Of a stretch of DNA of 64,000 bases, positions 2,161 through 63,328 are shown piece by piece; positions within the stretch are counted from its first letter, which is position 1, and each line of letters starts with the position of its first letter. Position numbers and translations under genes: made by a program. Source of the DNA: an uncultured Candidatus Sumerlaeota bacterium (GTDB taxonomy: Bacteria; Sumerlaeota; Sumerlaeia; UBA8349); contig OW818685.1 in NCBI GenBank assembly GCA_942493245.1, positions 4,770,973-4,834,972 of the forward strand. Direction: 5' to 3'. Under the pieces are notes generated by a model, which worked only from the letters and a program-made list of their open reading frames with translations, had not been told where the DNA came from and did not search any database.

Positions 2161-2325
2161 CTCACCGCCTCCCCTCTCCCCCGATTCGTCCCTGAAGAAA
2201 CAAACAGTCCCGGGCACGCGCCTCCCTGTCGGCGCGGCGCTCCCGAAACAAGTAATACTTCCCCTCTTCTATCCTATCGGCCACCCAAGCGGAGACCTTG
2301 AGCGTTTTCCCCATAAAAGATACCA

Positions 2326-2577
2326 GGAACTCCTCATTGTCTAGTTTGCCTTTTCTGTTCGGGGAAAACAGAAACCATTTCTCCGTCATCCCCGCGAACG
2401 CGGGGACCCAGAGAAGCGCGAACCCGAGACAAGGAAGTCGTTCACGGCTCGGAAAAATCCAAACAGGGGGTTCCGGATCTGGGTTCCCGCTTCCGCGGGA
2501 ATGACGAATGAGGGAAAACCCCGAATAACCCATATAACCGGTAACATCATCGCTCGCCTATACAACGAGGAGTTCCT
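2326..2577. mobile_element. MITE-like non-autonomous element A, about 250 bp, with 15-bp terminal inverted repeats GGAACTCCTCATTGTC / ACAACGAGGAGTTCC
   Basis: Left TIR at 2326-2341 and right TIR at 2563-2577 are reverse complements with one mismatch. The same TIR bounds element B at 54647-54924. A TAAAAGAT motif is present in both flanks. The internal cargo is the 121-bp double-hairpin repeat at 2385-2505. Confidence 0.5.
2385..2505. repeat. Family-1 121-bp double-hairpin repeat, copy 1
   Basis: GTCATCCCCGCGAACGCGGGGACCCAGAG ... CTGGGTTCCCGCTTCCGCGGGAATGAC. The two ends are imperfect inverted repeats and each end is itself a GC hairpin. A second copy lies at 36273-36392. It generates the spurious ORF peptides VIPANAGTQ and WVPAFAGMT on both strands. 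Confidence 0.75.
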
Positions 2578-2643
2578 GTAAAAGATCCGGGCCACGCGAA
2601 ACGGTTTTCGAGTGGCCCGTACCTTCTGCGATTCTTTTCAAGT

Positions 2644-4527: not shown

Positions 4528-4611
4528 CTGTCGGTCCTGACGATCAGCCGTTCCGTCCCGGAGGGACGGCTGAAAAACCAGGGGTAACCGACAGCCGTCC
4601 CTCCGGGACGG
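4528..4611. other. Structured palindromic element: inverted duplication of a CCGTCCC-N3-GGGACGG hairpin enclosed by an 8-bp long-range stem
   Basis: CTGTCGGT (4528-4535) pairs with ACCGACAG (4587-4594). Hairpin CCGTCCCGGAGGGACGG is at 4553-4569 and its reverse-complement copy CCGTCCCTCCGGGACGG is at 4595-4611. It is intergenic, downstream of the giant gene and upstream of the CMP-kinase-like gene. Confidence 0.45.
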
Positions 4612-4817
4612 GGAAGACGGGTGTTCCGGAACCCAGCGCTGAAGCGCTCGGCTATTGTCAAAAGTCCCTGACGGGACTTGGGTCAGGAACACCTGACTCC
4701 GTGTCATAATGAAGATTCTTTTTGGCAAAGGCTATATCTCCAGAAAGTGGCTCTTCGATGGACGCCAGACAGACGCCTGGCGGTCCCGGGGAGTGGTATA
4801 TCCCCCTCAGGAAAAAA

Positions 4818-8000: not shown

Positions 8001-11000
8001 TCGGTGTCGAAGTCGAGATCCGCCGTCGGCTTCCACGCCGGGTCAGTCAAACCTGTTATTGTCGGCGCGACCGGCTTCGCCTGAGTCTTCTTCCACAGGT
8101 AGAGATCCCAGGAAAGCGCTCCGGCCGAACGGCCCCACGTCATCGTCGCATCCACCGGAATGGAAAGCGAAGCGTCTTCCGGGTAGGGCGAGAAGGGCGC
8201 CTGAATGTCCGTGCGGAACGTCCAGACCGGTCCTTCCGTCGAATCCACCCGGTTTTTCGCCACCACCTGCCACGAATACGTCGTCAGGTAGTCGAGGGCG
8301 GCGGGCAGCGGATACTGACTGACCGACAGCGCCTCGGCGGTGAACGTGGTGGGCACAGGTTTGTCGGCCCGCCAGAACTTCAGGTCGTAAGATGTCGCCA
8401 TCGGCGTGTCGGCCCAGTCCAGTTGCAACGCGACCGATGCGGTCGTTGCGCCGTCCGCCGGAGCGGGTTGCGCCGGGGTCTCGGGTTTCAGCAGGATCGT
8501 CGTGAAGGTCCAGGTCGGCCCCTCGGTCCCCCCCGCCGTGTTGCGCGCCACGACTTTCCACTTGTAACTGGCGTCGTAGGGCAACGTCTGCGGCGGCGAG
8601 TACTGACTCACCGTCAAACCCGACGTGGTGGGCGACCAGGGTTGCCCTTCCGTCGCTTTCCAGAGATAGACGTCGTAGGTCGCCACGCGCTTCGAGTCCG
8701 CCCAGTCCAGCGTCAAGGTGACGGGCGCAGTGGTTGAATTGTCCTCGGGGTTGGGCGTCGTGGGCGCTTCCGGCGCAGTCAGATAGATCGTCCGGAACGC
8801 GGATTCCGTACTCGCCACCGTTCCCTGTGCGTTGCGCGCCACCACCTGCCAGCGGTAATCCGTCCAGTAGGCCAGACCGCCCGGTACCTGGAAGGTCTTG
8901 CCCATCAGCCCCGCCTGAGTCGGAACAACCGGTTTGGCCTCATTCGACTTCCACAGATAGAAGTCATACGAATCGGTCAAGCCGCCGCCGCTCCAGTTGA
9001 AGGTCACATCCGACTCGACGTTGGTGGCGTTGTTGGCCGGGGTCAGCAGAATCGGGCGTTCGGGCCAGATGGACGGCGCAAACGTCACCTGATCGACCCA
9101 CCCGGCGTTACTGCCCGCCGTCCACCACCCACGCGTATAGACCCACTTGAGCGAGTGCGATCCGGCGGGCACCTCGACGGTCTGTGAGGTCCAGCCCACT
9201 TCGCCGTTGATCGAGACCTGTTGCGCATCGTCAATGTAGAACCGCAGCGTGGTGTCGGTGTGCGCCGAGAGTTTCCACCAGAACGTCAACGTGCGATGCT
9301 CGGTCGTCGAGATGTCGGCGCGCAACGTGCTCGGCACGTTATAGCCCGTGTTGCCGCTCTGCGCCGCATCAACGCCGTCGTGCGTCACCTCGGTCTGATA
9401 GAACCACGTTGCGTCCCCTTCGGTGGACCATGTCATGGGCAGCAGGTTCGCATCCACCGAGTTAGCCAGATTCTTCGGATAGACGCTCAACAGCCACGAT
9501 TCTTCGTCCGAACCCAGTTCGTTCGTGGCGCGAATGGTCACCGTGGTGACCCCCTCGGTCGCCGAAGCCCACGAGACCACGCCGGTGCCGGCGTCAATCG
9601 TCATGCCCTGCGGACCGGCCACCAGCGACCAGGCGATCGGCTGCGCGCCCTGAACCATCTCCGGTGTCGGACCGGTATAAGATTCACCGACCGAGACCGA
9701 AGCGTCGGGAATTTCAACAATGACCGGCGCCTGCGGATCAATGATATTCAGAGTCACCTGCGTCTGCATCGCGGTGCCAAGCTCCACATACCGCGCGGTC
9801 AATGTGACCTGGGATGGGGTCGGAGCATCCGGATCAATCGTGATCTCGACTCCGTTAATCTCAACATAATCCGCCGGAGCCGCCTCGAACTCGATCGTCG
9901 AGGTCACGTTCAGACGCGTACCGTTCACATAGTTGACAAACGCGCGTCCGTTGATCACATTGCCCGGACTGACGTTGATCTCAGTCCCTTCGGCCATCGC
10001 CTTCGACACCACCCGACCCACTCCGTCTTCCACCTGCGCGGAAAGCGCCTTGAGGGTCGAGGACGTCTCGGGGAAGTCCAGATAGACTTCGAGGTTGCCC
10101 GCCAGGACGCGGTGATAGAGCGACACGTAGCCCTCGCGCCAGCCGATCATCAGCGTCTGGTCGTTGTTGCTGAATCCCACCGACGCTGCGCCGATGTTCT
10201 CCTCACCCATACCCGAAGCCGGCAGGAACTCGCGGATCGTCGAGCCGTCGTTCATGTTGATGAGCCGCACCGGGCGCGCCGATTGCCCCGGCTTGCTGCC
10301 GCCCGAAACACCCACCAGCGCCAGCGTCCCATCCTCGGAAATGGCCACGGTGAAGGACGCGTCCACCGACTCGCCCATCAGCGCATCCACCGTCACACTC
10401 ATGATGAAAATATCATTGACCAGAGAGGGACCGGCGACCAGGTCCGAAATGTCGTAGGTCTCCAGATAGTACATGTGGGTCTGTTCAATATCGTCTCCCG
10501 AGACCTCCTCGGTCACGGCCACACACCGTGTGCCCAGTTCGTTCACAAACAACTGCAAGGGCGAGTGGCGCGTCTTCATGCCGTTGAACAACAGACCCGC
10601 GCTGTTCCAGATCCCGATAAACCGTTCATTGTACATGCCGCCCAGGAAGTGGTTCTCGAGGCGGAAGTCAAGAGCGCCCGCCACACGGGATTCCTCGCGA
10701 ATCTGGCTCAGGTTCGCCAGATCCCACAGCCGCACCTTCGAGTCCGCCGTCACCATCCGCGTTCCCTGCGGCGAGATGGCAAACGCAGACGCCGGGGTAT
10801 GCAGCGTTTTCCAGAGCAGATCGTTGGCCGTATCGTACATGAAGATCGAAACGCCCACGCGCGTGGCCAGTTTCGAACTGTCGTTGGTAAAGTCCATGCC
10901 CTCGAACTTCGGGTCAATGAAGTACCCGGTTTCCATCAGGCGCGTCGCGGTCATATCCACCCGGTTTGTCCCCGGTGTCCACTTCATGGTCCGCTTCGGA

Positions 11001-34983: not shown

Positions 34984-35286
34984 TTCTCTATGCCTTGACC
35001 CAGACACAGGGAACACAGAAACGACACCCACCCGAAGGGATGCCCCCAAGACGCCCGTGCCACCTCCTGCGCGCGTCTGCGCTCCCTCACAGATCCGGAG
35101 TTTTTCAACCTTGCTTGACACGCCCACCCCGGACGTTTATGATTCCAGATAGACTGAGGGGTGGGGCATTCCGGGCACAACGAGATTGGGGACACACACG
35201 GTGAACTCCCCGTATCGGCCAGGTGCCTCGAAAACAGACCTGATCCCCATCCCCCAATACGTCACACGACAAGGAGATCTGCTTCG

Positions 35287-36084
35287 ATGGTGTTTCATCG
35301 GATTTTGGGCGGCCTGATCCTGGCCGGGTTATTGAGTGTTGTCTGCGGTTGCCGTCACTCCTCCCCCTATCGCTACGCCGATGGGGTCTTCCAGTACTCG
35401 ACCCTGCAGGCCCTGCTCGAGGGAGTGTACGACGGGGAGTTGGAGTGCGGCGAACTGCTCTCTCACGGCGACCTGGGAATTGGAACCTTCAACGCGCTCG
35501 ATGGGGAAATGATCGTTCTGGACGGGCAATGCTATCAGGCGAAAGCGAATGGCTCGATCCAGCGCGTCCCGGGAAACTGGAGCACCCCCTTCGCCACCGT
35601 CACCCCGTTCGACGAAGACGAAATTCTGCACCTGGGACAGGTCTCCTCTCTGGATGTCTTCACCGCCACGATGGATAAGGCCGCAACCAACCGCAATCTG
35701 CCCCTGGCGTTTCGCGTGGACGGAACCTTCACCTATATCAAGACGCGCAGTGTGCCTGCCCAGAAAAAACCCTACCCGCGTCTGGCCGACGCGGCCAAAC
35801 GGCAAAAAGTCACGGAAATCAAGAATGTGACCGGAACCATTGTCGGATTCCGCCTGCCACAGTATCTCAACGGCGTCAACGTGGCGGGGTACCACATGCA
35901 CTTCATTGACTCGAAACACCGCTGGGGCGGGCACGTACTGGATTTCTGGGCGCCTGCGCTGCGCGTGGCGCTCGACCCCTCGACCGATCTGCGCATCGTC
36001 CTGCCCCAGACCGACGAGTTCGCCCGGGCGAAACTGACTGAAAGCAAGGAAGCCGAAGTCCAGGCCGTGGAACGCGGAAAATAA
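35287..36084 (+). CDS. alsD: Alpha-acetolactate decarboxylase with N-terminal signal/lipoprotein-like peptide
   Basis: GVFQYSTLQALLEGVYDGE...GDLGIGTFNALDGEMIVLDGQCYQ is the ALDC signature. ATG 35287 has AAGGAG 11 nt upstream. The N-terminus is MVFHRILGGLILAGLLSVVCGC. Confidence 0.85.
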   Translation: MVFHRILGGLILAGLLSVVCGCRHSSPYRYADGVFQYSTLQALLEGVYDGELECGELLSHGDLGIGTFNALDGEMIVLDGQCYQAKANGSIQRVPGNWSTPFATVTPFDEDEILHLGQVSSLDVFTATMDKAATNRNLPLAFRVDGTFTYIKTRSVPAQKKPYPRLADAAKRQKVTEIKNVTGTIVGFRLPQYLNGVNVAGYHMHFIDSKHRWGGHVLDFWAPALRVALDPSTDLRIVLPQTDEFARAKLTESKEAEVQAVERGK

Positions 36085-36085
36085 G

Positions 36086-36157
36086 AGGGGACACGGGCGT
36101 TCCGCCCGTGAAGCGGTTTGGATCATGGGTGGGACGCCCATGCCCCCTTTTTTTATT
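36086..36157 (+). repeat. Family-2 REP-like palindromic element (a), doubling as an intrinsic terminator after alsD
   Basis: GGACACGGGCGTTCCGCCCGTGAA ... GGTGGGACGCCCATGCCCCC is followed by TTTTTTT. It shares the CAYGGGCG-N3-CGCCCRTG core with the elements at 42976, 54724 and 56578. Confidence 0.6.
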
Positions 36158-36272: not shown

Positions 36273-36392
36273 GTCATCCCCGCGAACGCGGGGACCCAGA
36301 GGAGCGCGAACGGGAAAACAGGGGGGGAACTCAGGGGAAACGCAATCAACCAGAACGTCCCGGATCTGGGTTCCCGCTTTCGCGGGAATGAC
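36273..36392. repeat. Family-1 double-hairpin repeat, copy 2
   Basis: Near-identical ends to copy 1 (GTCATCCCCGCGAACGCGGGGACCCAGAG ... CTGGGTTCCCGCTTTCGCGGGAATGAC). It is flanked at about 100 bp on each side by the perfect 12-bp palindrome CTTTTGCAAAAG (36171-36182 and 36473-36484). Confidence 0.75.
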
Positions 36393-36515
36393 GAAAAGTG
36401 GAATGGCGTTTAGACCCGAATGTAAAAAACATTCAAAACGATCAACCCAACTTTGTCGCCGTTTACTCCATACTTTTGCAAAAGGCTCAATCACCTCGAA
36501 AAGGAGACCGGAAAG

Positions 36516-42953: not shown

Positions 42954-42975
42954 CGCATCGAGAGTGTTTCAAGAA

Positions 42976-43137
42976 GAGGCACGGTTGTCTTGCCCGTGAA
43001 GCAAGAGGAGGCACGGGCGTTCCGCCCGTGAGTCGGTTTGTCCCGCCGGCGCGGTTCCGATGGAAACTCGGGGGAAGGTTCCAGATTTCGGAGGCCCTTA
43101 TAATATGGACAACATGGTCGGGACGCCCATGCCACCT
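42976..43137. repeat. Family-2 REP-like element (b)
   Basis: The left end has a tandem of GAGGCACGG...GCCCGTGAAG and GAGGAGGCACGGGCGTTCCGCCCGTGA. The right inverted partner is GGTCGGGACGCCCATGCCACCTC at 43118-43137. Confidence 0.6.
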
Positions 43138-43300
43138 CATACGTGCCCCCGTCTTTTCAAGACCCGGAGTCTCTTGACAGAACCATTTCAAAGAAAAACA
43201 CCCACTGATACAAATATCAAAATCCCCCGATGCGAAAGATAACGAGACCCACCCCATCATGACTTTTTTCCCCCACGCCTGCCCGACCGAATCCATCGCG

Positions 43301-44278
43301 ATGGACCGCATCCGACTCGACGACGCCACGTTTGCCCTGCGCGTCGAGCGTCCCGACGAAGCGGCCGACCTGCGCGCCTCACTCGAACGGGTGGGACTGT
43401 TGCACCCGCCTCTCGTGCGCGCGACCAGCCAGGGGGATTTCCAGATCGTCTGCGGGTTTGCGCGCCTGCGTGTCTGGCGCGCCATGGGGCAGCCGAATGT
43501 TCTGGTCCGGATAGCCCCTGAGACGGCCTCCCCCGCCGACCTGCTGCGGGTCTCAATCGAAGAGAACCGCGCCTCGCGCGGGCTCAACCCGGCGGAGGAA
43601 GCGCTGGCGCTCGATAAACTGTCCGTTCACCTGCCGCGTAAGGTTCTGGTCACCGAGGTTCTGCCGCAGCTGGGCCGCAAGCCCGCCGAGGTTATCCTCG
43701 ACCGCCTGCTCGGCTGGCGCCGTCTGCCCGATGCGGTGTGGCGCGCGCTGGCCCTGGGTGAGATTGCCGAAAGCGCCCTCGACCACCTCAAACCGTTCTC
43801 CCCCGACGATCAGGTCATGGCTATCCGGTGCGTGGCGGCGCTGCGTCTGAGTTCGGGCGCGACGCGCGACTTCTGCCGCCAGGCCTTCGACGTGACGCAA
43901 CGCGACGGCGTGACGCTGGACCAACTGACGCGCGAACTGGGGTTGAACCTGGAGGTAGAACCGGAATTGTCCGATCTGCCGACTTTGCGTACGCGCTTTC
44001 TCGACGCATTGCGCCGCCGCCGCTGGCCGGTCCTGACGCGGCTCGAGGCGACCTACGCCGAACAGCACCGAGCGTTGCAACTGCCAGGCACGATCCGGTT
44101 GCGTCCACCGAAAGATTTCGAAGGTTCCGACTGGCGGCTCGAAGCGACGCTCACCAGTCCCACCGACCTGCGCCAGGCGATCGAACTGCTCCTCAACCGT
44201 CTCGACACGCGCACCGAAGAAGTTCAGGGGCTTTTCGACCTGCCGGTGGAAAAGCCGGGGGGGGGTGATCATTCCTGA
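43301..44278 (+). CDS. ParB/Srx-like N-terminal domain protein with uncharacterised C-terminal region
   Basis: RIRLDDATFALRVERPDE...LRASLERVGLLHPPLVRATSQGDFQIVCGFARLRVWRAMG matches the ParB-like nuclease/CTPase N-domain pattern. An alternative start is 43259. Confidence 0.65.
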   Translation: MDRIRLDDATFALRVERPDEAADLRASLERVGLLHPPLVRATSQGDFQIVCGFARLRVWRAMGQPNVLVRIAPETASPADLLRVSIEENRASRGLNPAEEALALDKLSVHLPRKVLVTEVLPQLGRKPAEVILDRLLGWRRLPDAVWRALALGEIAESALDHLKPFSPDDQVMAIRCVAALRLSSGATRDFCRQAFDVTQRDGVTLDQLTRELGLNLEVEPELSDLPTLRTRFLDALRRRRWPVLTRLEATYAEQHRALQLPGTIRLRPPKDFEGSDWRLEATLTSPTDLRQAIELLLNRLDTRTEEVQGLFDLPVEKPGGGDHS

Positions 44279-46527: not shown

Positions 46528-46730
46528 AAGACCAAACCGAAAAGACTTTAGTGAAGCGATGGGGATATTGTCAAGCGAGAACCGTATGCCGCAAGTTTAC
46601 CGGATGGGTGGCTCGGTTGACGTTAGCGGGTGTGGCGGTGGAAAAGAGGGCCGCTGAGCAACAGGACAATTTGGGGGTTCAGGAGGATCGGGAACCGGAT
46701 CGTTTAAAAAAACCGCAGGAAACGCCTATA

Positions 46731-46772
46731 GTCCGGTTTTCTTTCAGGCGGGCGTGACGGCCGCCCTCCCAG
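46731..46772 (+). repeat. Family-3 short repeat copy
   Basis: GTCCGGTTTTCTTTCAGGCGGGCGTGACGGCCGCCCTCCCAG. Compare 59203-59242. Confidence 0.6.
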
Positions 46773-47003
46773 GAACTGCGCGCCGCTGTTTGAGGGATGT
46801 TCCAGGGGCGCGCTTTTTATGCGCGAGTGCTCACTATTGAGCATGTTGCTCAGAAACGGCTACCGGCGTGCCTGATTGTGATTAATAACAACCGCTCAAA
46901 TTGGGGGGAGATAAAGTAGTCTGATCTTCACCTGTTCCGGAAATAATTATTCAGAGATCTCATAATAAAGCGATTATGTCACGGATCAGGGTCTTTGTTT
47001 TTC

Positions 47004-51488: not shown

Positions 51489-51705
51489 GTGGCCCCGAAG
51501 GGGCCTCCCGATCAGTAGCCGTGGGTGACCGAAGGGAACCCACGGACAGGGAATTGCCTATTTCGCACCCTGAAGGGGTGCCCCAACGAAAGTGAAATCA
51601 ATGATTGGGGAACCCCTTCGGGGTTTGATTTATTATGGGGACATATTCCGTAGGTTCCCTTCGGTCACCTACGGCTACTGAAGGGGAATCCCTTCGGGAT
51701 TCAAC
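51489..51705. repeat. Cluster of six GC hairpins with CGAAGG/CCTTCG loops; two 32-nt units are inverted copies (MITE-like, family 4)
   Basis: U2 AGTAGCCGTGGGTGACCGAAGGGAACCCACGG (51514-51545) and U5 CCGTAGGTTCCCTTCGGTCACCTACGGCTACT (51648-51679) are reverse complements with 2 compensatory changes. Four further hairpins (GGCCCCGAAGGGGCC, GCACCCTGAAGGGGTGC, AACCCCTTCGGGGTT, GAATCCCTTCGGGATTC) lie between and around them. Confidence 0.55.
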
Positions 51706-54586: not shown

Positions 54587-54646
54587 TCCAACACGGAATG
54601 AGACGCGTGTTGATTTTTCAACGGGTTTTCCGGTCCCGGGTCTGCG

Positions 54647-54924
54647 GAACTCCTCATTGTCTATATGACCTAAAACCAAGATCTCCCATCTTCGGGCCTT
54701 CACACAGGGAGAAAGGCGGTTCCGAGGTGGCATGGGCGTCTCGCCCATGAAGGGTCTCCGGAACAAAAGACCCGAAATCCCCGGTCCTGCCGATGAGAAC
54801 GTCGGCAATTCACGGGCGGGACGCCCGTGCCACCTCCGGGCCATCTCCATTTTGCAGGACGAGGGACTTCCCTGTATCCCCCCTCGAACGACAACCTCAC
54901 AATTCGCCGGACAATGAGGAGTTC
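54647..54924. mobile_element. MITE-like element B, 278 bp, with perfect 15-bp TIRs GAACTCCTCATTGTC / GACAATGAGGAGTTC, flanked by a 14-bp direct repeat GTCCCGGGTCTGCG
   Basis: TIRs are at 54647-54661 and 54910-54924. The direct repeat GTCCCGGGTCTGCG lies at 54633-54646 and 54927-54940, a target-site-duplication-like arrangement. The internal cargo is the family-2 REP pair (54724-54836). The same TIR bounds element A at 2326-2577. Confidence 0.6.
54724..54836. repeat. Family-2 REP-like element (c)
   Basis: GAGGTGGCATGGGCGTCTCGCCCATGAA ... TTCACGGGCGGGACGCCCGTGCCACCTC. The terminal 28-bp arms are inverted repeats. Confidence 0.7.
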
Positions 54925-55021
54925 GTGTCCCGGGTCTGCGTATTTTCCAGTTTTCCCTTGCAATTGCCCGGCACGGTTCCCACAATCCCTTCATTATTGG
55001 GTCGGGAGGAAATGACCGAAA

Positions 55022-55786: not shown

Positions 55787-55861
55787 TCGGTGGCTCGATC
55801 GCGCCGTCCCGGCCCGGGAGGCCGGGTTTTCCGTTCGCTCCAGAAATTGAAGGATTTGCCG

Positions 55862-57808
55862 ATGGATAGCATGCCCCCGGAGGCCGTCGCCCCGTGTGTT
55901 GTGACTCGACGCCCCTCGAGCGGCGGAACGGGGCGTTTTTTTCTGCTGATATTCGGGTTGGCGCTTCTGGTGCGGGTGGCTGGGTTGGACGTGTTTCCCC
56001 CGGGGCTGTGGATGGACGAAGGGCTGAAGGGCATGGACGCGTGGCGCACCTGGCACGCAACGCGCTACGGTCCCGCCACCGGTCCCCTCTGGATCTATCC
56101 GGACATTTTTCCCCGCGAGCCGTTGTTTGTCTGGATTCAGAGCGTGGCGGTCACGCTCGGCGGGCCACGGGTGATCGTCCTGCGGTTGACGTCGGTGTTG
56201 ATCGGCTGTCTGGCTTGTCTGGCTTTTTTCGGTCTGGTGCGCTCGCTGGAACGGGAACGCGGCGCGCGGTTCGCGCTTGTGGCGGCGTTTGTGCTCTGTA
56301 CACTGCACTGGCATGCGCATTTCAGCCGATTGATCTTCCGGACCAATCTGGTCCCCCTCGTGGCGTGCTTGCTGGTGTGGGCGCTGTCCGCCGCCCGGCA
56401 TCGAGCGAACGCAGACCGCACAGGCGTGTTGCCATGGATCGCAGCCGGACTGTTCCTGGGTTTGGGATTTTATACGTATCTTTCCTGGTATTTCTTCCTG
56501 CCCGTGGCCGCCGTGTGGTTCTGGGCGCTGGCGGGAGGGGGTTCGCAAGCCCAGGAAGGTGACATGGGTGTTCCCCGAGGTGGCACGGGCGTCCCGCCCA
56601 TGAACGCAGTTGAAAATCATTCTCAGTCCCAGGAGGAACCCCTCACGGGCGAGACGCCCGTGCCACCTCAAACGGTCCCTCCTCTGGTTGTACAACCTCC
56701 GTTCGTACCTCCTCGGAAGAGGACAACTTTCTGGACCGCGCTGGCCGGAGTGTTGATCGGGGCGGTTCTGATCGTCTCGCCCCTGGTGGCGCATTATCTG
56801 TCCTCGCCCGGCGATCTGGTGGGGCGTCCGCAGGCGGTTTCGCCCCTTCAGAAGGGGTGGAAGGCCGGGTTGCAGCTCATGGGGCGCAATGCGCTGGATG
56901 TGGCCCTGATGTTCTCCTTCCGGGGCGACCATGTGGGGAAACACAACATTCCGGTCGAGACCGCCGAGGGGGAACGCCCCTATGGCAAGCCGGTTTTCGA
57001 TCTTGTGTGGTCCTTGTTCTTCTACGCGGGGTTACTCCGGGCGGGGTGGGAGGTCGTGCGCCGGGGCAAACAGTGCCGGCAATCTCTTGCCTGGTTCGCC
57101 TGGTTGGGGTGCATGTCGTTGCCGTCGGTGGTCACGCAGACCGATTCGGTCAACATGCTGCGCAATCTGGGAGTGACGCCTGCCGTGGCGTATTTTGTCG
57201 CGCTTGGCTGGTGGTGGGGGTATGAATCGGTTCAGCGCCTGGGCGCGGCGGTATCGTCCGAGGCGCTCGCGAGACGGAAACGGCTGCTGGGGGCGCTGCT
57301 GATCGGCCTGCTGGTCTATGGGGCCGGGTATCAGGTCTATAAGCTCTGGTACCTGCACCCGCAGGCGCCGGGGATGCAGGACCAGTTCAATTTCTACCAC
57401 GTGGCGCTGGCGGAGATGTGCGAAATCCCGCAGGACGCCCCTCAGACTCCCTCCGTGACGTTTGTACCCACGGACTACTACGAGCACCGGACTTTCGGGT
57501 TTCTGACGATCGAGCGCGGCGACATCCTGCCGCTCGACCCCGTGGCGCTTCTGTCGCGCCCGCTTGCGGGCAAGGCCCGTGTGGACCACCGGGTGATCTG
57601 TACGGACTACAATCCGCGCAATCTCAAGAGTTTGCGGACGCTTTTTCCCGACGCGTGGGTTGAGTCGAACACAATTCTGGTGCAGCCGCCCGGTGGCGGT
57701 CCCGAACAACCGGTGGCGCTGATGCTCCACATCCCCGCTGACAGTCTGTTGCCGCGCGCCGAGGCCAAACGCCAGGCGGCGCGGTTGCAGTTGAATACGC
57801 GGTACTGA
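55862..57808 (+). CDS. GT-C fold membrane glycosyltransferase, PMT_2/ArnT-like (GT39/GT83-like), carrying an in-frame REP insertion
   Basis: Multi-TM N-terminus with a DE-containing first periplasmic loop (GLWMDEGLKGMDAWRTW) and a soluble C-terminal domain. I prefer ATG 55862 (GAAGGA 7 nt upstream). The repeat at 56578-56669 is translated in frame as ...GDMGVPRGGTGVPPMNAVENHSQSQEEPLTGETPVPPQ... Confidence 0.78.
   Translation: MDSMPPEAVAPCVVTRRPSSGGTGRFFLLIFGLALLVRVAGLDVFPPGLWMDEGLKGMDAWRTWHATRYGPATGPLWIYPDIFPREPLFVWIQSVAVTLGGPRVIVLRLTSVLIGCLACLAFFGLVRSLERERGARFALVAAFVLCTLHWHAHFSRLIFRTNLVPLVACLLVWALSAARHRANADRTGVLPWIAAGLFLGLGFYTYLSWYFFLPVAAVWFWALAGGGSQAQEGDMGVPRGGTGVPPMNAVENHSQSQEEPLTGETPVPPQTVPPLVVQPPFVPPRKRTTFWTALAGVLIGAVLIVSPLVAHYLSSPGDLVGRPQAVSPLQKGWKAGLQLMGRNALDVALMFSFRGDHVGKHNIPVETAEGERPYGKPVFDLVWSLFFYAGLLRAGWEVVRRGKQCRQSLAWFAWLGCMSLPSVVTQTDSVNMLRNLGVTPAVAYFVALGWWWGYESVQRLGAAVSSEALARRKRLLGALLIGLLVYGAGYQVYKLWYLHPQAPGMQDQFNFYHVALAEMCEIPQDAPQTPSVTFVPTDYYEHRTFGFLTIERGDILPLDPVALLSRPLAGKARVDHRVICTDYNPRNLKSLRTLFPDAWVESNTILVQPPGGGPEQPVALMLHIPADSLLPRAEAKRQAARLQLNTRY
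56578..56669. repeat. Family-2 REP-like element (d), intragenic and in frame within the GT39-like gene
   Basis: GAGGTGGCACGGGCGTCCCGCCCATGAA ... TCACGGGCGAGACGCCCGTGCCACCTC. The arms are 25/27 inverted repeats. The length is 92 bp, which is not a multiple of 3, so either the local frame is preserved only together with adjacent sequence, or the predicted protein skips the element. Confidence 0.65.
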
Positions 57809-59003: not shown

Positions 59004-59202
59004 ACCAAGCCCAGAAAAGAAGAACAGGGAGAACCGCAGCCCTCTCCCCCGTCAAACCGGTCGAGCGGATTTCCCGCATCTGGCCTTTCTTCTGACTCTC
59101 GCCCCAAGGCATGCGGATTGACCAGAGCGCCTCATACTGATTGCTTGTCCATAAACCTGAGAACCGCGGTTGAACCTGAATACCGCAGTTGAACGCCTGT
59201 CG

Positions 59203-59242
59203 TCCGGTTTTCTTTCAGGCGGGCGGGACGCCCGCCCTCCCA
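59203..59242 (+). repeat. Family-3 short repeat copy
   Basis: TCCGGTTTTCTTTCAGGCGGGCGGGACGCCCGCCCTCCCAG, with a perfect GGGCGGG-ACG-CCCGCCC hairpin. Confidence 0.6.
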
Positions 59243-59476
59243 GAAAGCCCACCCAAAGGGAGAACGGATTGCCCTCTTTTTTCCCCTCTTTACATGGCGT
59301 CAAGACCCGTTTCTTCGTTTCAACTGCTGTCTTTGAGATAAATAGTTATCACTTTTCTCAAAACGATCATCGTGGCAGCCAGCACCGCCAACCTCGGATA
59401 AGAGCGGGTTTTTGACCGGTCTCCTGCCGCAAGAGATGTTGAAGAGACCCTGCCCCATCCCTTGTGAGCGATTCCC

Positions 59477-60242: not shown

Positions 60243-61754
60243 TCAAGGTTGCGTTCGAGGCACAAAGATCGTCTTGGGGCGCGTCTTTCCCCCGCTGACG
60301 GGCCAGAACACATCGGGCCGGGGAAAAACCGGCCCGGCTTCCTCATAATACTGATCCCATCCATGCGGAAGAGAATGTCCATCAAACAGAATTTCGGCAA
60401 AACGTTGTTCTCGAACGGCCTGATTCAAACTTTCCCAGACACAGACCGGAACCTGTTCTTTCCCGCCGGCAAGAACGCGAAATGGAGAATAGTAGGTAGC
60501 CCGAATCGGTTTCCCTGCCATGGGACCAAGATGGCCGTGGAAGGCGACCCAAACATCGCCTTCCACGTGTTTCAGACGTTCAACCAAGGCCTCCCCCGCC
60601 TCACGATCCGCCCGGGACGGTACTCGGATGCGCGGGTCGTAGGCAACCAGGGCAAATTGGACAAGAAGCAAAAAATAAAACGCCATCTGGATTTTGGGGG
60701 ACTGGAACCTTTGGGCCGCTTTCTGGAACAGGATTCCCACTAAAAGCGCAAACAGGGCACAGTCGGGCATGAGGGAATTTTCAGCGCCCCCTTCCGACCA
60801 TTGGCCAATCCAGGACGCAATAAGAAATCCGCCTCCCAGAGTCGGCAGGAAGAGTTGCTCCCGCCAGGTTTTCCAGTTCCGTATCCCCAGATACAATCCC
60901 CCGAGCGCGGCAATGGAAACAATCGGCATCTTGATTGCGACATGACGTGTCCAGAAATCAAGCCCGTGGCCGATGCGTAACGAATGCTCAAACAGATAAC
61001 CCCACATATACGGACAGAACCACCCCTCTTGCCAGACATCCATCGCGAAGGACCCTCCGACCACGAGTAAGCCAAAGGGGAGCAAGAGCCATCCGGCACG
61101 ACGGGGATGGAGGACGGAGACGATGCACAAAACAGGAAGAGAGGCGGGTAACGCCGTTTGTTTCGTGAAGACCGCCAGAGCCAGAAGAATTCCTGTCGAT
61201 ACGTCCGCCAGGGGAGTCTTTCCGAAACGAAGCAGGTACATCGCCGACAAAAGAAGAAAAAGTAGCAACGAGTCCACCCGCGCCACATCGAACCACCCGC
61301 CGCAAACTCCGTAGGAGGCCGCATAGAAGCCCGCGGAAAGAAACGCGAAATAACGGGAGTCCGTTTCCCGTCGGACATAGGCAAAAAGTATCCCGAGACA
61401 CCCCACGGACGCAACCACGGAAGCCAGGCGCAGCACCCACAGATTAAACCCCAGGCACTGGGCAAGACCAGCCGAAAGATAGTAATACAGGGGAGGATAA
61501 ATACTCGGAGAATAATCCAGAGACGGTTTTGCGTAGAGGGGCAATCCTTGCAGGATTCGAGAAACGTGATCCGCCAGAACCCCCTCGAAAATCTCCAGTT
61601 CGAACGGGTACCCGATCCGCAACAGAACCAGCCCGAAATAGAGAAGAAGCGAACCTGTCGACGCAACCAGGAGCGCCCCGCGCATCAGGCGAACGCCCGG
61701 GGTGGGGAGGGTGGGCTTGTGTCCCGGCAGGACCGCCGAAGTTTTGGAATGCAT
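60243..61754 (-). CDS. Polytopic membrane protein with C-terminal periplasmic domain (putative GT-C-like glycosyltransferase), paralog B
   Basis: 503 aa with about 11 hydrophobic segments. Paralogous to the upstream gene: shared LLRIGYPFELE(I/T)FEG..ADHVSRILQG, YPPL(Y/F)YYLSAGLA, WFDVARVDSL, and GAENSLMPDCALFALL(V/M)G. Its ATG overlaps the upstream stop (TGATG). Confidence 0.75.
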   Translation of the reverse strand: MHSKTSAVLPGHKPTLPTPGVRLMRGALLVASTGSLLLYFGLVLLRIGYPFELEIFEGVLADHVSRILQGLPLYAKPSLDYSPSIYPPLYYYLSAGLAQCLGFNLWVLRLASVVASVGCLGILFAYVRRETDSRYFAFLSAGFYAASYGVCGGWFDVARVDSLLLFLLLSAMYLLRFGKTPLADVSTGILLALAVFTKQTALPASLPVLCIVSVLHPRRAGWLLLPFGLLVVGGSFAMDVWQEGWFCPYMWGYLFEHSLRIGHGLDFWTRHVAIKMPIVSIAALGGLYLGIRNWKTWREQLFLPTLGGGFLIASWIGQWSEGGAENSLMPDCALFALLVGILFQKAAQRFQSPKIQMAFYFLLLVQFALVAYDPRIRVPSRADREAGEALVERLKHVEGDVWVAFHGHLGPMAGKPIRATYYSPFRVLAGGKEQVPVCVWESLNQAVREQRFAEILFDGHSLPHGWDQYYEEAGPVFPRPDVFWPVSGGKTRPKTIFVPRTQP

Positions 61755-63328
61755 CAGGCTTGTCCCCCCGATTCCGTCTGGGCCGCCGGTTGCGGCAGGG
61801 ATGGCTCGGTTTCGTTGCGGGGCCGGGGGACAAAGATTGCCTTGGGCCGCGTTTTGTAACCGGTCACCGGCCAGAATACGTCGCGCCGTTCAAAGACCGG
61901 CCCGGCGTCCTGATAGTAGGCGTCCCATCCCTCGGGCAGGGAGTGCGCGTCGAACAGAATTGCGGCGAAGCGTTGCTCGCGGACGGCGCGATCCAGACTT
62001 CCCGGAAACGATGCCGGTTTGGGTTCTCCCAGGGAAGACATCGAAATCAGAGGTTGATAATAGATCGCCCGAATCGGTTTCCCGGCCATCGGTCCGAGAT
62101 GACCGTGAAAGGCAACCCACACGTCGCCCTCGATTCCCTTCAACCGCTCGATCAGCGCTTCACCCGCCTCGCGGTCCGCCCGCGAAGGAACCAGTGGACG
62201 CGGATCATAGACCACCAGACCGAATTGAATCAGAACCAGGGCGTACAGGAACGTCTGCTTCCGGGGCGAGGTTGTCTGTTCCAATCCTTTCTGGAGCAAA
62301 ACCCCCATCAGAAGCGCGAAGAGCGCGCAACTGGGCAGGAGAGCGTTTTCGGCGCCCCCGACTGACCAGCGACCGATCCAGGCCGTTGCCAGAAGCCCCA
62401 GCGCCAGCGCGGGCAGAAAGAGCCGATCGCGCCAGTTTGTCTGGCCAGAAAAACCTCTCCAAAGCCCCAGCAGCGCGGCAATAGAAATGAGAGGCATCTG
62501 CCGGAAAACATGCCGGACCCAGAAATCCGCTCCCTGCCCCGGCCGCAAAGCGTGTTGAGCCAGATGTTCCAGAACATACGTCCGATACCACCCGCCCTCA
62601 TGCAAACGGTCCAGGAGAAAGGAACCTCCCCCCAGAAGCAGTAAAAAGGGAACCAGACACCAGACCGCCCGGCGGGGCCGGGCTAACGTGACGGCGCACA
62701 GGGCGGGTAGAACCGCTGAAAACGCAGTCTGTTTGGTAAACGCCGCCAGAACCAGTAAGGCTCCCGCCAGGAGACCACCCCCTGGCGTTTTCTGGAAACG
62801 AAGCCCATATACACCGGCCAACAGAAAAAACAGGTACAGAGAATCCACACGCGCAACATCGAACCACCCCACGCAAATTCCATAGGTGGCCGCGTAGAAA
62901 CCCGCGGAGAGAAACCCACAAAAGCGAGAACCGGTCTCGCGCCGGACATACCCATAGAGAATCCCCAGACAGCCCACCGAGGCGAAGACGGAAACCAACC
63001 GCAAGACCCACAAGTTCACCCCAAAGACCCACGCCAACCCCGCCGAGAGATAATAGAAAAGGGGCGGGTAGATGTTCGAGACAAAATCCACCGACGGGGC
63101 CACATAGATGGATTTTCCCTGGAGAATCCGGGACACATGATCCGCCGTCAACCCCTCGAACGTTTCCAGTTCGAACGGGTAGCCGATCCGCAACAGGACG
63201 AGAATTGCATACAGCAGAATCGAGCCGCCCGCCGCCACCCCCACTGCTTTACGCAGCAGACCGGACATTGCCGACGACGACCACCCGGAGCGCCACGGCG
63301 CGAGGGATGGGGTTTGTTCCGGATTCAT
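61754..63328 (-). CDS. Polytopic membrane protein with C-terminal periplasmic domain (putative GT-C-like glycosyltransferase), paralog A
   Basis: 524 aa and collinear with paralog B, including the C-terminal EGDVWVAFHGHLGPMAGKPIRA(I/T)YY...FDxHSLPxGWDxYYxxAGPVF motif. GGAAGGG RBS upstream of ATG 63328. Confidence 0.75.
   Translation of the reverse strand: MNPEQTPSLAPWRSGWSSSAMSGLLRKAVGVAAGGSILLYAILVLLRIGYPFELETFEGLTADHVSRILQGKSIYVAPSVDFVSNIYPPLFYYLSAGLAWVFGVNLWVLRLVSVFASVGCLGILYGYVRRETGSRFCGFLSAGFYAATYGICVGWFDVARVDSLYLFFLLAGVYGLRFQKTPGGGLLAGALLVLAAFTKQTAFSAVLPALCAVTLARPRRAVWCLVPFLLLLGGGSFLLDRLHEGGWYRTYVLEHLAQHALRPGQGADFWVRHVFRQMPLISIAALLGLWRGFSGQTNWRDRLFLPALALGLLATAWIGRWSVGGAENALLPSCALFALLMGVLLQKGLEQTTSPRKQTFLYALVLIQFGLVVYDPRPLVPSRADREAGEALIERLKGIEGDVWVAFHGHLGPMAGKPIRAIYYQPLISMSSLGEPKPASFPGSLDRAVREQRFAAILFDAHSLPEGWDAYYQDAGPVFERRDVFWPVTGYKTRPKAIFVPRPRNETEPSLPQPAAQTESGGQA

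Follow-up and report, generated by a model that had tools for sequence, protein, structure and literature searches.

Head-out dimers of a GTGG-tagged, REP-like hairpin at four loci of Sumerlaeota DNA, one in frame in a glycosyltransferase gene and one within a MITE-like element

Tagged-hairpin elements are generally considered to be mobilized by RAYT, a tyrosine transposase of the HUH/Y1 type. In the criteria of Quentin et al. 2018 (PMC6006769), a REP has a fully paired, G+C-rich stem of 7-20 bp, closed by a loop of 2-5 nt, and carries the tag GTAG or GTGG on its 5′ side at a distance of 0-2 nt; copies in a genome are numerous and for the most part extragenic, and the genome also has a RAYT gene with the REP on its flanks (a REPtron). 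One such type, GTAG-19 of Opitutus terrae, also occurs within genes, where according to Additional file 3 of its description the repeats encode the peptides GTGVPPV, TGGTPVP, HGRDARAT, WHGRPAR, VARASRP and SRAGRPCH (PMC3733652). In the parts of that study that deal with intragenic repeats, GTAG-19 units are already documented in frame as both singles and dimers (Di Nocera, De Gregorio and Rocco 2013, BMC Genomics 14:522; PMC3733652). Here we analyze a 64-kb stretch of Sumerlaeota DNA (the window), for which a preliminary description had reported a family of REP-like hairpins at four loci, referred to as copies (a) to (d). These loci are very probably head-out (HH) dimers of a GTGG-tagged REP of the GTAG-19 type, with copy (d) an old in-frame insert and copy (c) a dimer captured by a MITE.

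The repeat unit and its family

Searching the window for the hairpin CAYGGGCG-N3-CGCCCRTG (pattern CAYGGGCGNNNCGCCCRTG, at most 2 mismatches) returned nine matches, whereas 100 dinucleotide-preserving shuffles averaged 0.24 and never exceeded 2. The matches include all four of the loci reported earlier. Eight of the nine matches form four head-out pairs. The ninth, at 18230, has an atypical loop and is not counted as a member of the family because it lacks both a head and a partner. In total, four loci (9 units) were counted in 64 kb, where 0.24 would be expected, and three of the four loci are intergenic (Table 1). The unit can be written as 5′-(GAG)GTGG-CAYGGGCG-TCY-CGCCCRTG-A, comprising a GTGG tag, an 8-bp stem and a TCY loop in about 24 nt (the top-strand tagged hairpin with its GTGG head is GTGGCACGGGCGTCCCGCCCGTGA). 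Its tag, its 8-bp G+C-rich stem and its 3-nt loop all fall within the REP criteria which, together with the head-out dimers and the RAYT genes that units flank elsewhere, bears out the label REP-like and refines it.

Table 1. Positions of the repeat copies and associated features in the window
Feature	Position	Strand	Composition or evidence
Sibling TIR element	2324..2578	.	Same TIRs, CAGGAACTCCTCATTGTC ... GACAACGAGGAGTTCCTG
Copy (a), head-out REP dimer	36085..36149	.	Left hairpin 36092-36110, preceded by head GAGGGGA; right hairpin 36124-36142, reverse-complement head 36143-36149; hairpin search, fold
7-T run behind copy (a)	36148..36154	+	With the dimer hairpin, terminator-like site of the acetolactate decarboxylase gene
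Copy (b)	42973..43138	.	Degenerate unit, forward unit (head GAGGAGG, hairpin 43012-43030) and reverse unit (hairpin 43113-43131, CCACCTC 43132-43138)
Left 10-bp direct repeat	54634..54643	.	TCCCGGGTCT (target-site duplication)
MITE-like TIR element, 284 bp	54644..54927	.	Copy (c) at centre; TIRs, alignments
Left TIR	54644-54661		(GCG)GAACTCCTCATTGTC
Copy (c), head-out REP dimer	54724..54836	.	GAGGTGG 54724-54730, hairpin 54731-54749; hairpin 54811-54829, CCACCTC 54830-54836; dG -42.7 kcal/mol
Right TIR	54910-54927		GACAATGAGGAGTTC(GTG)
Right 10-bp direct repeat	54928..54937	.	TCCCGGGTCT
GT-C fold membrane glycosyltransferase gene, host of copy (d)	55862..57808	+	Pfam PMT_2
Copy (d), head-out REP dimer inside the glycosyltransferase gene	56577..56669	.	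GAGGTGG 56577-56583, hairpin 56584-56602 with one C.A mismatch; hairpin 56644-56662, CCACCTC 56663-56669; alignments, fold, AlphaFold2

Two details of the preliminary description hold in part. The head GAGGTGG is shared by all units of (c) and (d) but is found in (b) only on the right arm, with GAGGGGA and GGGGG in (a) and GAGGAGG in the main left unit of (b); the tag GTGG thus directly adjoins the stem in five of the eight paired units ((b) right, (c) both, (d) both), and GGGA, GGGG and GAGG stand where it is expected in the remaining three. The spacing between the arms, given as 40-80 bp, does not apply throughout: the gaps measure 13 nt (a), 82 nt (b), 61 nt (c) and 41 nt (d). Folded as single-stranded DNA, every pair was much more stable than its shuffles, with z = -4.3 (a), -2.8 (b) and -7.1 (c), and for (d) -7.7 on the + strand and -8.1 on the - strand.

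Unit statistics were compiled from 253 oriented units, taken from 120 genome loci, the loci of relatives and the window. Head counts are G240 T222 G235 G223, of which the GG had been specified in the search pattern, and units were oriented by their heads; the loop is TCC or TCT in 213 units, a count that is independent of the orientation procedure. The stem covaries at position 3 (C-G 162, T-A 58, T.G 23, C.A 6) and at position 8 (G-C 223, A-T 26), with Watson-Crick pairs in 222-251 of the 253 units at each stem position. Neighbouring units are arranged head-out in 74 of 99 pairs, and a fully canonical unit is present in 83 of the 120 genome loci, compared to approximately 0.2 expected from the search pattern alone. 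Pattern matches in Bradyrhizobium, Sutterella, an actinomycete, an alphaproteobacterium, Pseudomonadales and Armatimonadia are without the GTGG head and the TCY loop and were set aside as chance. An Rfam search of the whole window at gathering threshold gave no match, and a plant miRNA precursor that appeared in a permissive Rfam search of 54600-54960 (26 bits, with a gathering score of 100) merely reflects the long hairpin.

Five of the six reading frames through the unit are open, and the residues encoded by two of them (GGTGVPPV and TGGTPVPP) are small and flexible. Translated in six frames, the window unit yields all six of the GTAG-19 peptides that Additional file 3 lists for Opitutus terrae. 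Judged by these encoded peptides, the window unit is a REP of the GTAG-19 type, with GAGGTGG as the head of this lineage-specific form.

Units of the same kind accompany RAYT genes. L084 and L110 each have a RAYT open reading frame with flanking units, while in L070 the RAYT beside a unit is partial; scores with the NCBIfam model REP_Tyr_transpos are 85.7 and 78.9 bits (cutoff 80), and Pfam Y1_Tnp also matches. Among at least 7,193 RAYT homologues, the best 120 include 58 with REP peptides at their ends. No RAYT was detected in the 64-kb window by tblastn with two RAYT queries, and none of the best 120 of at least 7,193 RAYT homologues was assigned to the host contig. We infer both that the mobility of the family would be driven by a RAYT and that this genome would carry one. 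As a separate observation, a RAYT domain that looks catalytically intact appears to lie in frame inside leucyl-tRNA synthetase (leuS) in many Verrucomicrobiota, with 67 fused proteins, and this LeuRS insert is present or absent between alleles that are 99% identical (filled and empty alleles P0163 and P0230).

Copy (c) and the TIR-bounded elements

Copy (c) has a HemN-like radical SAM gene on one side and a DUF3109 gene on the other. Its spacer contains two small hairpins, and the spacer of this doublet type (~60 nt) is conserved in 12 copies from other assemblies. The element around it has 18-bp TIRs and no coding capacity. Five full-length relatives (L059, L135, L137, L177, L182) have the TIRs and, in each case, their own ~10-bp direct repeats, and one of these contigs (L137) holds two dispersed copies. 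Homology to L001, L002 and L003 restarts at 54942-54947, just beyond the element; the upstream context is rearranged in these relatives, among which a clean empty site was not found. The sibling element at 2324-2578 is flanked by an imperfect 10-bp direct repeat (TAAAAGATAC / TAAAAGATCC), and its core (2385-2508) is a different one, namely a head-out dimer of the CGTC-tagged hairpin CGTCATCCCCGCGAACGCGGGGAC. A possible full-length parent of the element in L152 was rejected, as the TIR-like match 3.5 kb away is a chance match inside a prepilin-type gene, with no transposase in between; a partner transposase of the element was not found.

The exactly central position of copy (c) between 18-bp TIRs and a 10-bp direct repeat, the five full-length relatives with target duplications of their own and the second element with the same TIRs could be taken to mean that each of the four loci derives from a conventional MITE mobilized by a DDE transposase, with the hairpins as internal structure and no role for RAYT. 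We consider this improbable. TIRs and a target duplication are present at copy (c) only: no TIR was found at (a), (b) or (d) within 3 mismatches, nor any homology to the arms of the element, so that TIR MITE does not describe the family as a whole. Moreover, the sibling combines the same TIRs with an entirely different hairpin core, which indicates that the core is cargo and not part of the machinery of the TIR element, and the unit is present without TIRs in many phyla, where it flanks RAYT genes. HUH transposases are not known to produce TIRs or target duplications, and since copy (c) has both, at least this copy moved by another mechanism. For a RAYT-associated REP family, copy (c) would then be a dimer taken up by a MITE with TIRs and target duplications of 10 bp, so that in this lineage part of the family would have spread via a second route, probably with a DDE transposase.

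The other intergenic copies and the copy inside a glycosyltransferase gene

Copy (a) starts right behind an acetolactate decarboxylase gene on the + strand (35161-36084; TAA stop at 36082-36084) and forms a long hairpin with a dG of -21 kcal/mol. The T-run that had been reported for it is indeed there, with seven T, and the site is detected as terminator-like; the terminator scan found 1 site in the region with 2.2 expected in shuffles, making the match alone weak. Copy (b) includes a third, degenerate unit at 42973-42998 (hairpin 42980-42998) that had been missed. Copy (b) as a whole has weak similarity to a reversed (c)-type element (68% over 147 nt) and is a diverged relative of the (c)-type doublet.

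A different source of the hairpins could be selection by the host, for which they would serve as terminators, mRNA stabilizers or protein-binding sites and would not be mobile DNA. The hairpin and T-run of copy (a) directly after a stop codon fit this, as does the position of every intergenic copy downstream of a + strand gene. The unit is also nearly invariant across phyla, and on the head-bearing strand T.G (23) is commoner than C.A (6) at position 3 of the stem, suggesting that one particular strand folds. However, a T-run is found at (a) only, with none behind (b), (c) or (d), the symmetric dimers have no fixed orientation relative to genes, and units flank RAYT genes. Copy (d) lies inside an ORF, where a terminator or binding site is not expected, as do units in many O. 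terrae genes in the part of the GTAG-19 study that covers them, and both of its hairpins accumulate mismatches in all three lineages that carry the insert. Host selection as the origin of the family is thus unlikely, while a secondary use by the host is compatible with mobile REP dimers as well.

Copy (d) encodes residues ~263-294 (RGGTGVPPMN...LTGETPVPP) of a 672-aa ORF at 55790-57808. The ORF is open through the repeat, as had been reported, and reads ...GVPRGGTGVPPMN...LTGETPVPPQ; the gene start used here (55862) is that of the identical NCBI protein P0001 (648 aa). The preliminary description offered either a tolerated in-frame insertion or a miscalled gene boundary, to be told apart by means of orthologues, and the orthologues speak for the insertion. 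At this very site two of them, approximately 83% identical (P0002 and P0003), have the same repeat DNA, likewise a decaying pair; in P0004 there is a remnant only, and P0005 and all more distant orthologues are without the insert. In DNA and protein alignments the same dimer occupies the site in L004 and L005, with a remnant in L003 and none in L001, and the loop lengths of the window, L004 and L005 differ by multiples of 3. The in-frame REP insertion is thus real, with a precedent in the same family published in 2013. Comparing the window with L004, the dimer is 91% identical (whole CDS 84%, adjacent loop DNA 74%), and this excess may reflect some constraint or gene conversion and not pure neutrality; with L005 the dimer is 81% identical (CDS 85%, adjacent loop DNA 76%), showing no excess.

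AlphaFold2 predicts a single GT-C fold across both halves of the protein (pTM 0.77), similar to AglB, STT3, ArnT and Pmt4. Residues 252-310, between helices 233-251 and 314-338, have a pLDDT <50 and no secondary structure, and in this model (d) sits in a disordered loop of a continuous GT-C fold. Although spurious long ORFs do arise in high-G+C genomes (e.g. an opposite-strand ORF of 813 aa) and the first 24 codons of the ORF lie upstream of the NCBI start, it is exceedingly improbable that the ORF is an artefact in which the repeat separates two genes or the parts of a frameshifted pseudogene, given that 32 homologues span both halves in one protein, insert-free orthologues are continuous, the frame is open through the repeat in three independent assemblies with differences in multiples of 3, and the model is one GT-C fold. 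The miscalled boundary fails on the same continuity, length differences and fold, and this settles the annotation question: the glycosyltransferase is one intact gene in which ~31 loop codons are repeat-derived.

Proposed origin and comparison with known systems

For the four loci as head-out dimers of a GTAG-19-type REP, a probable course of events is as follows. A RAYT would recognize the tagged hairpin on single-stranded DNA and then cut and rejoin it. Because the open frames encode small, flexible residues, a dimer landing in a tolerant site of a gene can persist. Copy (d) entered the loop between two transmembrane helices of the GT-C glycosyltransferase before the window lineage split from P0002, P0003 and probably P0004, and has since been read as ~31 loop codons, with both hairpins slowly decaying; we infer that this insert is neutral. 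Copy (a) would double as the stem of the terminator-like site. No transposition event was observed. Heads and spacers vary among the four copies and the insertion of (d) dates far back, so that in this genome the family may be a fossil.

A broader hypothesis, which we put forward only tentatively, is that a single REP/RAYT lineage has a unit kept nearly unchanged in part because it is compatible with translation (five of six frames open; Gly/Thr/Pro/Val linkers in the preferred frames) and a HUH transposase that can reside in genes, with (d) a fossil of it and capture by TIRs a second route of spread in Sumerlaeota. Such a lineage may be shared by Verrucomicrobiota, Planctomycetota, Kiritimatiellia, Lentisphaerae, Acidobacteriota, Hydrogenedentota and Sumerlaeota. 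If this is true, REP dimers, and even a whole RAYT gene with flanking REPs, could live in frame in host genes, leuS of many Verrucomicrobiota being an example. The window extends a published REP family and its intragenic habit to a further, little-studied phylum. The cross-phylum hairpin of ~24 nt, the TIR-borne REP dimers and the RAYT domain embedded in LeuRS may bear on how REP/RAYT systems persist and on how repeat DNA turns into protein.

Among described systems, GTAG-19 of O. terrae PB90-1 shares with the window the same six-frame peptides and the head-out dimers, as far as the peptides and repeats presented in its description allow the comparison (PMC3733652). Both have in-frame intragenic units; the O. 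terrae inserts set out there encode 7-50 residues in many housekeeping genes, glycoside hydrolases included. Unlike GTAG-19, which belongs to Verrucomicrobiota, the window family has a host in Sumerlaeota, a head extended to GAGGTGG and one copy nested in a TIR element.

Described REPINs are generally lineage-specific, whereas the window unit is near-identical across several phyla. BIMEs, the REP assemblies of E. coli, are bound by the host factors IHF, gyrase and Pol I. The REPINs of Pseudomonas fluorescens SBW25 (Bertels and Rainey 2011; PMC3116915) resemble the window copies in that two inverted REPs form one long hairpin. REPIN-RAYT systems are associated with a HUH/Y1 RAYT, and like REPINs the (c)-type doublet shares a conserved spacer; the spacers of (a) and (d) (13 and 41 nt) are unique, which makes these two copies unlike a uniform REPIN population. 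With E. coli REP/BIME and its TnpA-REP (RAYT), the family has in common the 5′ tag GT[AG]G, a G+C-rich imperfect palindrome, alternating orientation and sites downstream of genes. The window stem differs in its perfect pairing and its small size, with 8 bp and a loop of 3 nt, which places it in the "short hairpin" class (PMC6006769), and its sequence is unrelated.

The Rickettsia palindromic elements (RPE; Ogata et al. 2000, cited in PMC3733652) are likewise palindromic repeats inserted in frame in genes that are functional. As far as they are covered in that source, the likeness is one of behaviour (in-frame insertion) only, and their host is an obligate intracellular alphaproteobacterium. 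The same source identifies the intragenic CGTC-tagged repeats of R. conorii, whose tag is not that of the window family, as RPE-4 and RPE-6 and, in its part on CGTC repeats, reports no dedicated transposase for them (PMC3733652). Finally, the element at 54644-54927 is similar to bacterial MITEs in its 18-bp TIRs, its 10-bp direct repeat, its size of ~280 bp, its lack of coding capacity and its dispersed copies. Unlike ordinary MITEs, it has a REP dimer as its core, and the core of its sibling is a dimer of a different, CGTC-tagged REP.

Tagged hairpin pairs and the anatomy of their unit

We consider it likely that the four hairpin loci in the window are REP/RAYT-type dimers, one of which, copy (d), is tolerated in an open-frame loop of a glycosyltransferase (RAYT, REP-associated tyrosine transposase). 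All four, as claimed in a preliminary description, were found where it had placed them. With up to two mismatches allowed, CAYGGGCG-N3-CGCCCRTG has nine matches in the window, eight of which make up the four pairs, while in dinucleotide-preserving shuffles the mean was 0.24 and the maximum 2. The remaining match, at 18230, was rejected as a family member, having neither a head (the 5′ tag) nor a partner. A repeat finder picked up the two arm families (D7, D11), together with inverted relations between them (I4, I5, I11-I15, I19 and I24). Folded as single-stranded DNA, each pair forms a single long hairpin (-21 to -43 kcal/mol; z-scores against shuffles -2.8 to -8.1), and the two units are arranged head-out at all four loci. 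Details of the preliminary description needed correction: the gaps between hairpins, put at about 40-80 bp, measure 13, 82, 61 and 41 nt in copies (a) to (d), and the GAGGTGG head deviates in copy (a) and in the main left unit of copy (b). Copy (b) has an extra, degenerate third unit, and the left hairpin of copy (d) has one C.A mismatch. The ORFs upstream of copy (b), where gene calls are uncertain, have no Pfam match.

Unit anatomy was derived from 253 units in the window, the loci of relatives and 120 loci from other genomes, oriented by their tails, with counts that include copies related by descent. The consensus is 5′-GTGG / CAYGGGCG / TCY / CGCCCRTG / A. Of the 253, 213 have a TCC or TCT loop, a bias independent of the orienting procedure, and the unit is therefore truly asymmetric. 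Stem pairs covary at position 3 (C-G 162, T-A 58) and position 8 (G-C 223, A-T 26). The strand that bears the head tolerates T.G (23) more often than C.A (6), which suggests that it is the one to fold. Adjacent units are head-out neighbors in 74 of 99 pairs. Five of the six reading frames are open, the sole closed frame reading ...CCC GTG A and being stopped by TGA. GAGGTGG, an extended form of the head, is shared by the window with its close relatives (L003-L005) and with a Sumerlaeota bin (L059, L083), and marks a lineage-specific subfamily. Selection by the host for a structural element is a weaker explanation of these hairpins than REP/RAYT-type dimers; the two are compatible, since the host may put a dimer to secondary use, as at copy (a).

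Repeats and insertions in the window and in loci (L) and proteins (P) from databases
Feature	Location	Description
Copy (a)	36085-36149	Directly adjoins the TAA stop codon that ends an alpha-acetolactate decarboxylase gene; seven T directly after give a terminator-like site
Copy (b)	42973-43138	Upstream of ORF 43259-44278, whose ParB_N match is weak and sub-threshold
Copy (c)	54724-54836	Flanked by a HemN-like radical SAM gene and a DUF3109 gene
Copy (d)	56577-56669	Within ORF 55790-57808 (product with a Pfam PMT_2 match)
MITE-like family	window 54634-54937 and 2314-2588; L059, L135, L137, L177, L182	~250-300 bp, 18-bp TIRs (CAGGAACTCCTCATTGTC), 10-bp target duplications
CGTC-tagged hairpin family (CGTCATCCCCGCGAACGCGGGGAC)	window 2385-2508, 36273-36395; L001 about 4610-4770	Head-out dimers of ~124 nt
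Two-copy repeat, 55 nt	46721-46775 / 59192-59246	91% identical, G+C-rich hairpin GGCGGGCGGGACGCCCGCC; may be a third REP-like family
Inverted repeat, 46 nt	51501-51546 / 51647-51692	87% complementary, arms 100 nt apart
Diverged repeat	6461-8883	Up to 7 copies (60-78% identical), period ~285-290 nt or multiples; probably reflects domain repetition in the protein of a large - strand gene
Paired stretches	60256-60670 and 61824-62238	~180 nt stretches, 73% identical, 1,568 nt apart; suggest adjacent paralogous genes
Heptanucleotide repeats	L246:304-2454 (P0010)	In-frame tandem repeats filling two loops of a glycosyltransferase
RAYT in LeuRS gene	L084:314-3550 (- strand)	RAYT and two REPs in frame
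RAYT in helicase-like ORF	L110:864-4388 (- strand)	RAYT and flanking REPs in frame in a 1,174-aa ORF; second such case
RAYTs with internal TGGTPVP	P0048, P0054, P0057, P0067, P0072, P0077, P0079, P0086, P0088, P0099, P0106, P0109, P0117, P0136, P0139	

The terminal-inverted-repeat element around copy (c)

The stretch 54684-54927 has 12 matches in other assemblies (77-87% identity), one of them in L003, 5 kb downstream of the glycosyltransferase orthologue, and two on a single contig (L137), and is therefore a dispersed repeat. Elements of the same type in a Sumerlaeota-labelled genome bin are 84-86% identical. Full-length copies span 257-301 bp, are bounded by terminal inverted repeats (TIRs; CAGGAACTCCTCATTGTC and its complement), and are each flanked by their own direct repeat of ~10 bp; in the window this repeat is TCCCGGGTCT, and four relatives have GTAGAAGCGC, GTCCGTTGG, GGACACTCAA and GGTTACACGG. 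Homology of the window to L001, L002 and L003 restarts at 54942-54947, just past the element. HUH transposases are not known to make target duplications; the duplication present here therefore points to another enzyme as the mover of copy (c), probably a DDE transposase. No partner transposase of the TIR element was found.

The window element at 2324-2578 has the TIRs and subterminal arms of that at 54644-54927 but a different core, a head-out dimer of the CGTC-tagged rather than the GTGG-tagged hairpin. The cores of the TIR element are thus interchangeable, and REP dimers from both published superfamilies occur among them. A pure TIR MITE, in whose movement RAYTs would have no part, is consistent with the ends and duplications at copy (c) but fits that copy only, and is a weaker reading than REP/RAYT-type dimers. 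In the window, 120 nt separate copy (a) from a CGTC-tagged dimer on its downstream side, and the dimer of L001 lies in the intergenic region corresponding to the window site of copy (c).

A dimer in frame within a glycosyltransferase gene

An NCBI protein identical to the window glycosyltransferase has 648 aa and starts at 55862. In an alignment of orthologues, the check proposed in the preliminary description, the segment encoded by copy (d) is present in P0002 and P0003 (both 83% identical to the window protein), partial in P0004 (78%) and absent from P0005 (75%). More distant orthologues (39-51%) have other, mostly shorter, sequence in this loop, and homologues at 42-44% (P0016, P0017) bear Sumerlaeota names. 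These names, along with the copy (c)-type elements of the Sumerlaeota-labelled bin, are the basis on which the window is assigned, as probable, to that phylum. At the DNA level, two relatives (L004, L005) hold the same dimer at the same position, with point mutations that disrupt one or two stem pairs, and loop lengths among these and the window differ by 3, 6 and 15 nt, bearing out the proposed in-frame insertion. In L003 the left unit is gone, but the spacer and right unit can still be recognized in part (SPQEEDPIGGQT versus SQSQEEPLTGET); L001 has nothing of the dimer at this site in the DNA alignment. Since orthologues share the dimer or its remnant at one site, the insertion is older than the divergence of these lineages (at least three and probably four), between which the gene now differs by ~16% in DNA, and copy (d) appears to have been translated ever since.

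AlphaFold2, run on the orthologue alignment, gave a single protein (pTM 0.77) in which residues 252-310, between helices 233-251 and 314-338, have no secondary structure and pLDDT <50; the dimer codes for residues about 263-294, in the frames GGTGVPP and TGxTPVPP. Foldseek placed the model among the GT-C enzymes AglB, STT3, ArnT and Pmt4. A split gene with a miscalled boundary, also suggested initially, is rejected because the model is that of one GT-C protein, as well as on the orthologue evidence. Identity between the window and L004 is 91% over the dimer, against 84% over the CDS and 74% over the loop DNA next to it; this excess, absent from the comparison with L005, may be noise, or may reflect weak constraint or gene conversion by other copies. 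In a 42% identical orthologue (P0010), the loop of copy (d) and a second loop are full of heptanucleotides (CAATCCG/CAATCCC and CTCAGTC; translation PQSAIRNPQSPI...). Loops of this glycosyltransferase appear to accept several kinds of repeat DNA.

RAYT association, distribution and published relatives

In other genomes (L084, L110), the GTGG-tagged unit brackets ORFs with HUH and Tyr motifs, which score 85.7 and 78.9 bits against NCBIfam REP_Tyr_transpos (cutoff 80) and also match Pfam Y1_Tnp. A partial RAYT in L070 adjoins a unit, and a fourth RAYT, in L151, lies between GTAG-tagged hairpins with the same TCT loop. REP-encoded peptides occur at the ends of 58 of the best 120 database homologues of these RAYTs. 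In about 15 homologues TGGTPVP stands 14-16 residues past the HUH motif, a REP unit in frame inside the RAYT gene itself; REP insertion within some RAYTs was mentioned by Quentin et al. 2018 (PMC6006769). The helicase-like ORF of L110 reads Helicase_C ... Y1_Tnp ... NOV_C, and an additional REP unit within it, on the downstream side, reads WHGRPARGG.

The RAYT in the leucyl-tRNA synthetase (LeuRS) gene of L084 is inserted past the portion matching the editing-domain profile. Among the best 120 homologues of this 1,079-aa ORF (proteins P0154-P0238 among them), 67 have at least 1,000 aa (1,052-1,289 aa), and for 61 of these Y1_Tnp is among the precomputed Pfam entries; those that are named belong to Verrucomicrobiota, and overall identity to the query extends down to 58%. 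The insert site is the same across the aligned long proteins, its junctions are REP peptides, and every one of the 67 has the HUH motif as PNHVH or PNHIH, most of them also having Y..NP. LeuRS and RAYT divergence are weakly correlated (Spearman 0.21), and the nearest neighbor is an insert-free LeuRS for 15 of 66 insert-bearing proteins. A filled/empty pair (P0163/P0230) is identical at 839 of 847 positions outside the insert, and insert-free P0168 has a lone TGGTPVPP footprint. Judged by titles and abstracts, a literature search combining "leucyl-tRNA synthetase" and RAYT returned nothing on this subject.

As expected from what is established for REP/RAYT and IS200/IS605 systems, a RAYT would bind the top strand, folded and carrying its 5′ tag, in single-stranded DNA, and would cut and join the tagged hairpin, with the dimer as the mobilized form. 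Selection would then remove gene-breaking insertions, and those in tolerant loops with open frames would stay. What the sequences themselves show is tagged head-out pairs, the RAYT link elsewhere, open frames, an old insertion in a disordered loop and decaying hairpins. The weakest links of the whole account are a RAYT in this genome and present-day mobility.

Scanning GGCAYGGGCGNNNCGCCCRTGA against 185,579 species genomes gave at least 120 loci; we estimate that anywhere from tens to a few hundred matches could arise by chance in G+C-rich DNA. A fully canonical unit, including GT at -4/-3 and a TCY loop, both outside the search pattern, is present in 83 of the 120 loci listed (~0.2 expected from the pattern alone). 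Among the matches listed, canonical loci come from Planctomycetota (Tepidisphaeraceae, Phycisphaerae, Pirellula), Verrucomicrobiota, Kiritimatiellia, Lentisphaerae, Hydrogenedentota, Ignavibacteria, Sumerlaeota and Acidobacteriota (Pyrinomonadaceae, Terriglobia, Blastocatellia). Matches in Proteobacteria, an actinomycete and Armatimonadia lack head and loop and look like chance.

The published definition of a REP is GTAG/GTGG 0-2 nt from a fully paired 7-20 nt stem with a 2-5 nt loop (Quentin et al. 2018, PMC6006769). The window unit has this structure and brackets RAYT genes in other genomes, so the initial label "REP-like" was apt. Di Nocera et al. 2013 (PMC3733652) found head-out dimers to be predominant and described dozens of in-frame singles or dimers (7-50 residues) in Opitutus terrae genes, among them uvrA, dnaE2 and those for helicases and glycoside hydrolases. 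Because they reported both, neither the intragenic insertion nor the family is new, and what is new is the host lineage. Beyond routine are the breadth of the family across phyla, its capture by a TIR element and the RAYT inside LeuRS. Judged by encoded peptides, GTAG-19 of O. terrae and the window unit are alike: the six translations of the latter are the GTAG-19 peptides GTGVPPV, TGGTPVP, HGRDARAT, WHGRPAR, VARASRP and SRAGRPCH, of which the GTGVPPV type is the commonest in O. terrae GTAG-19 entries (PMC3733652).
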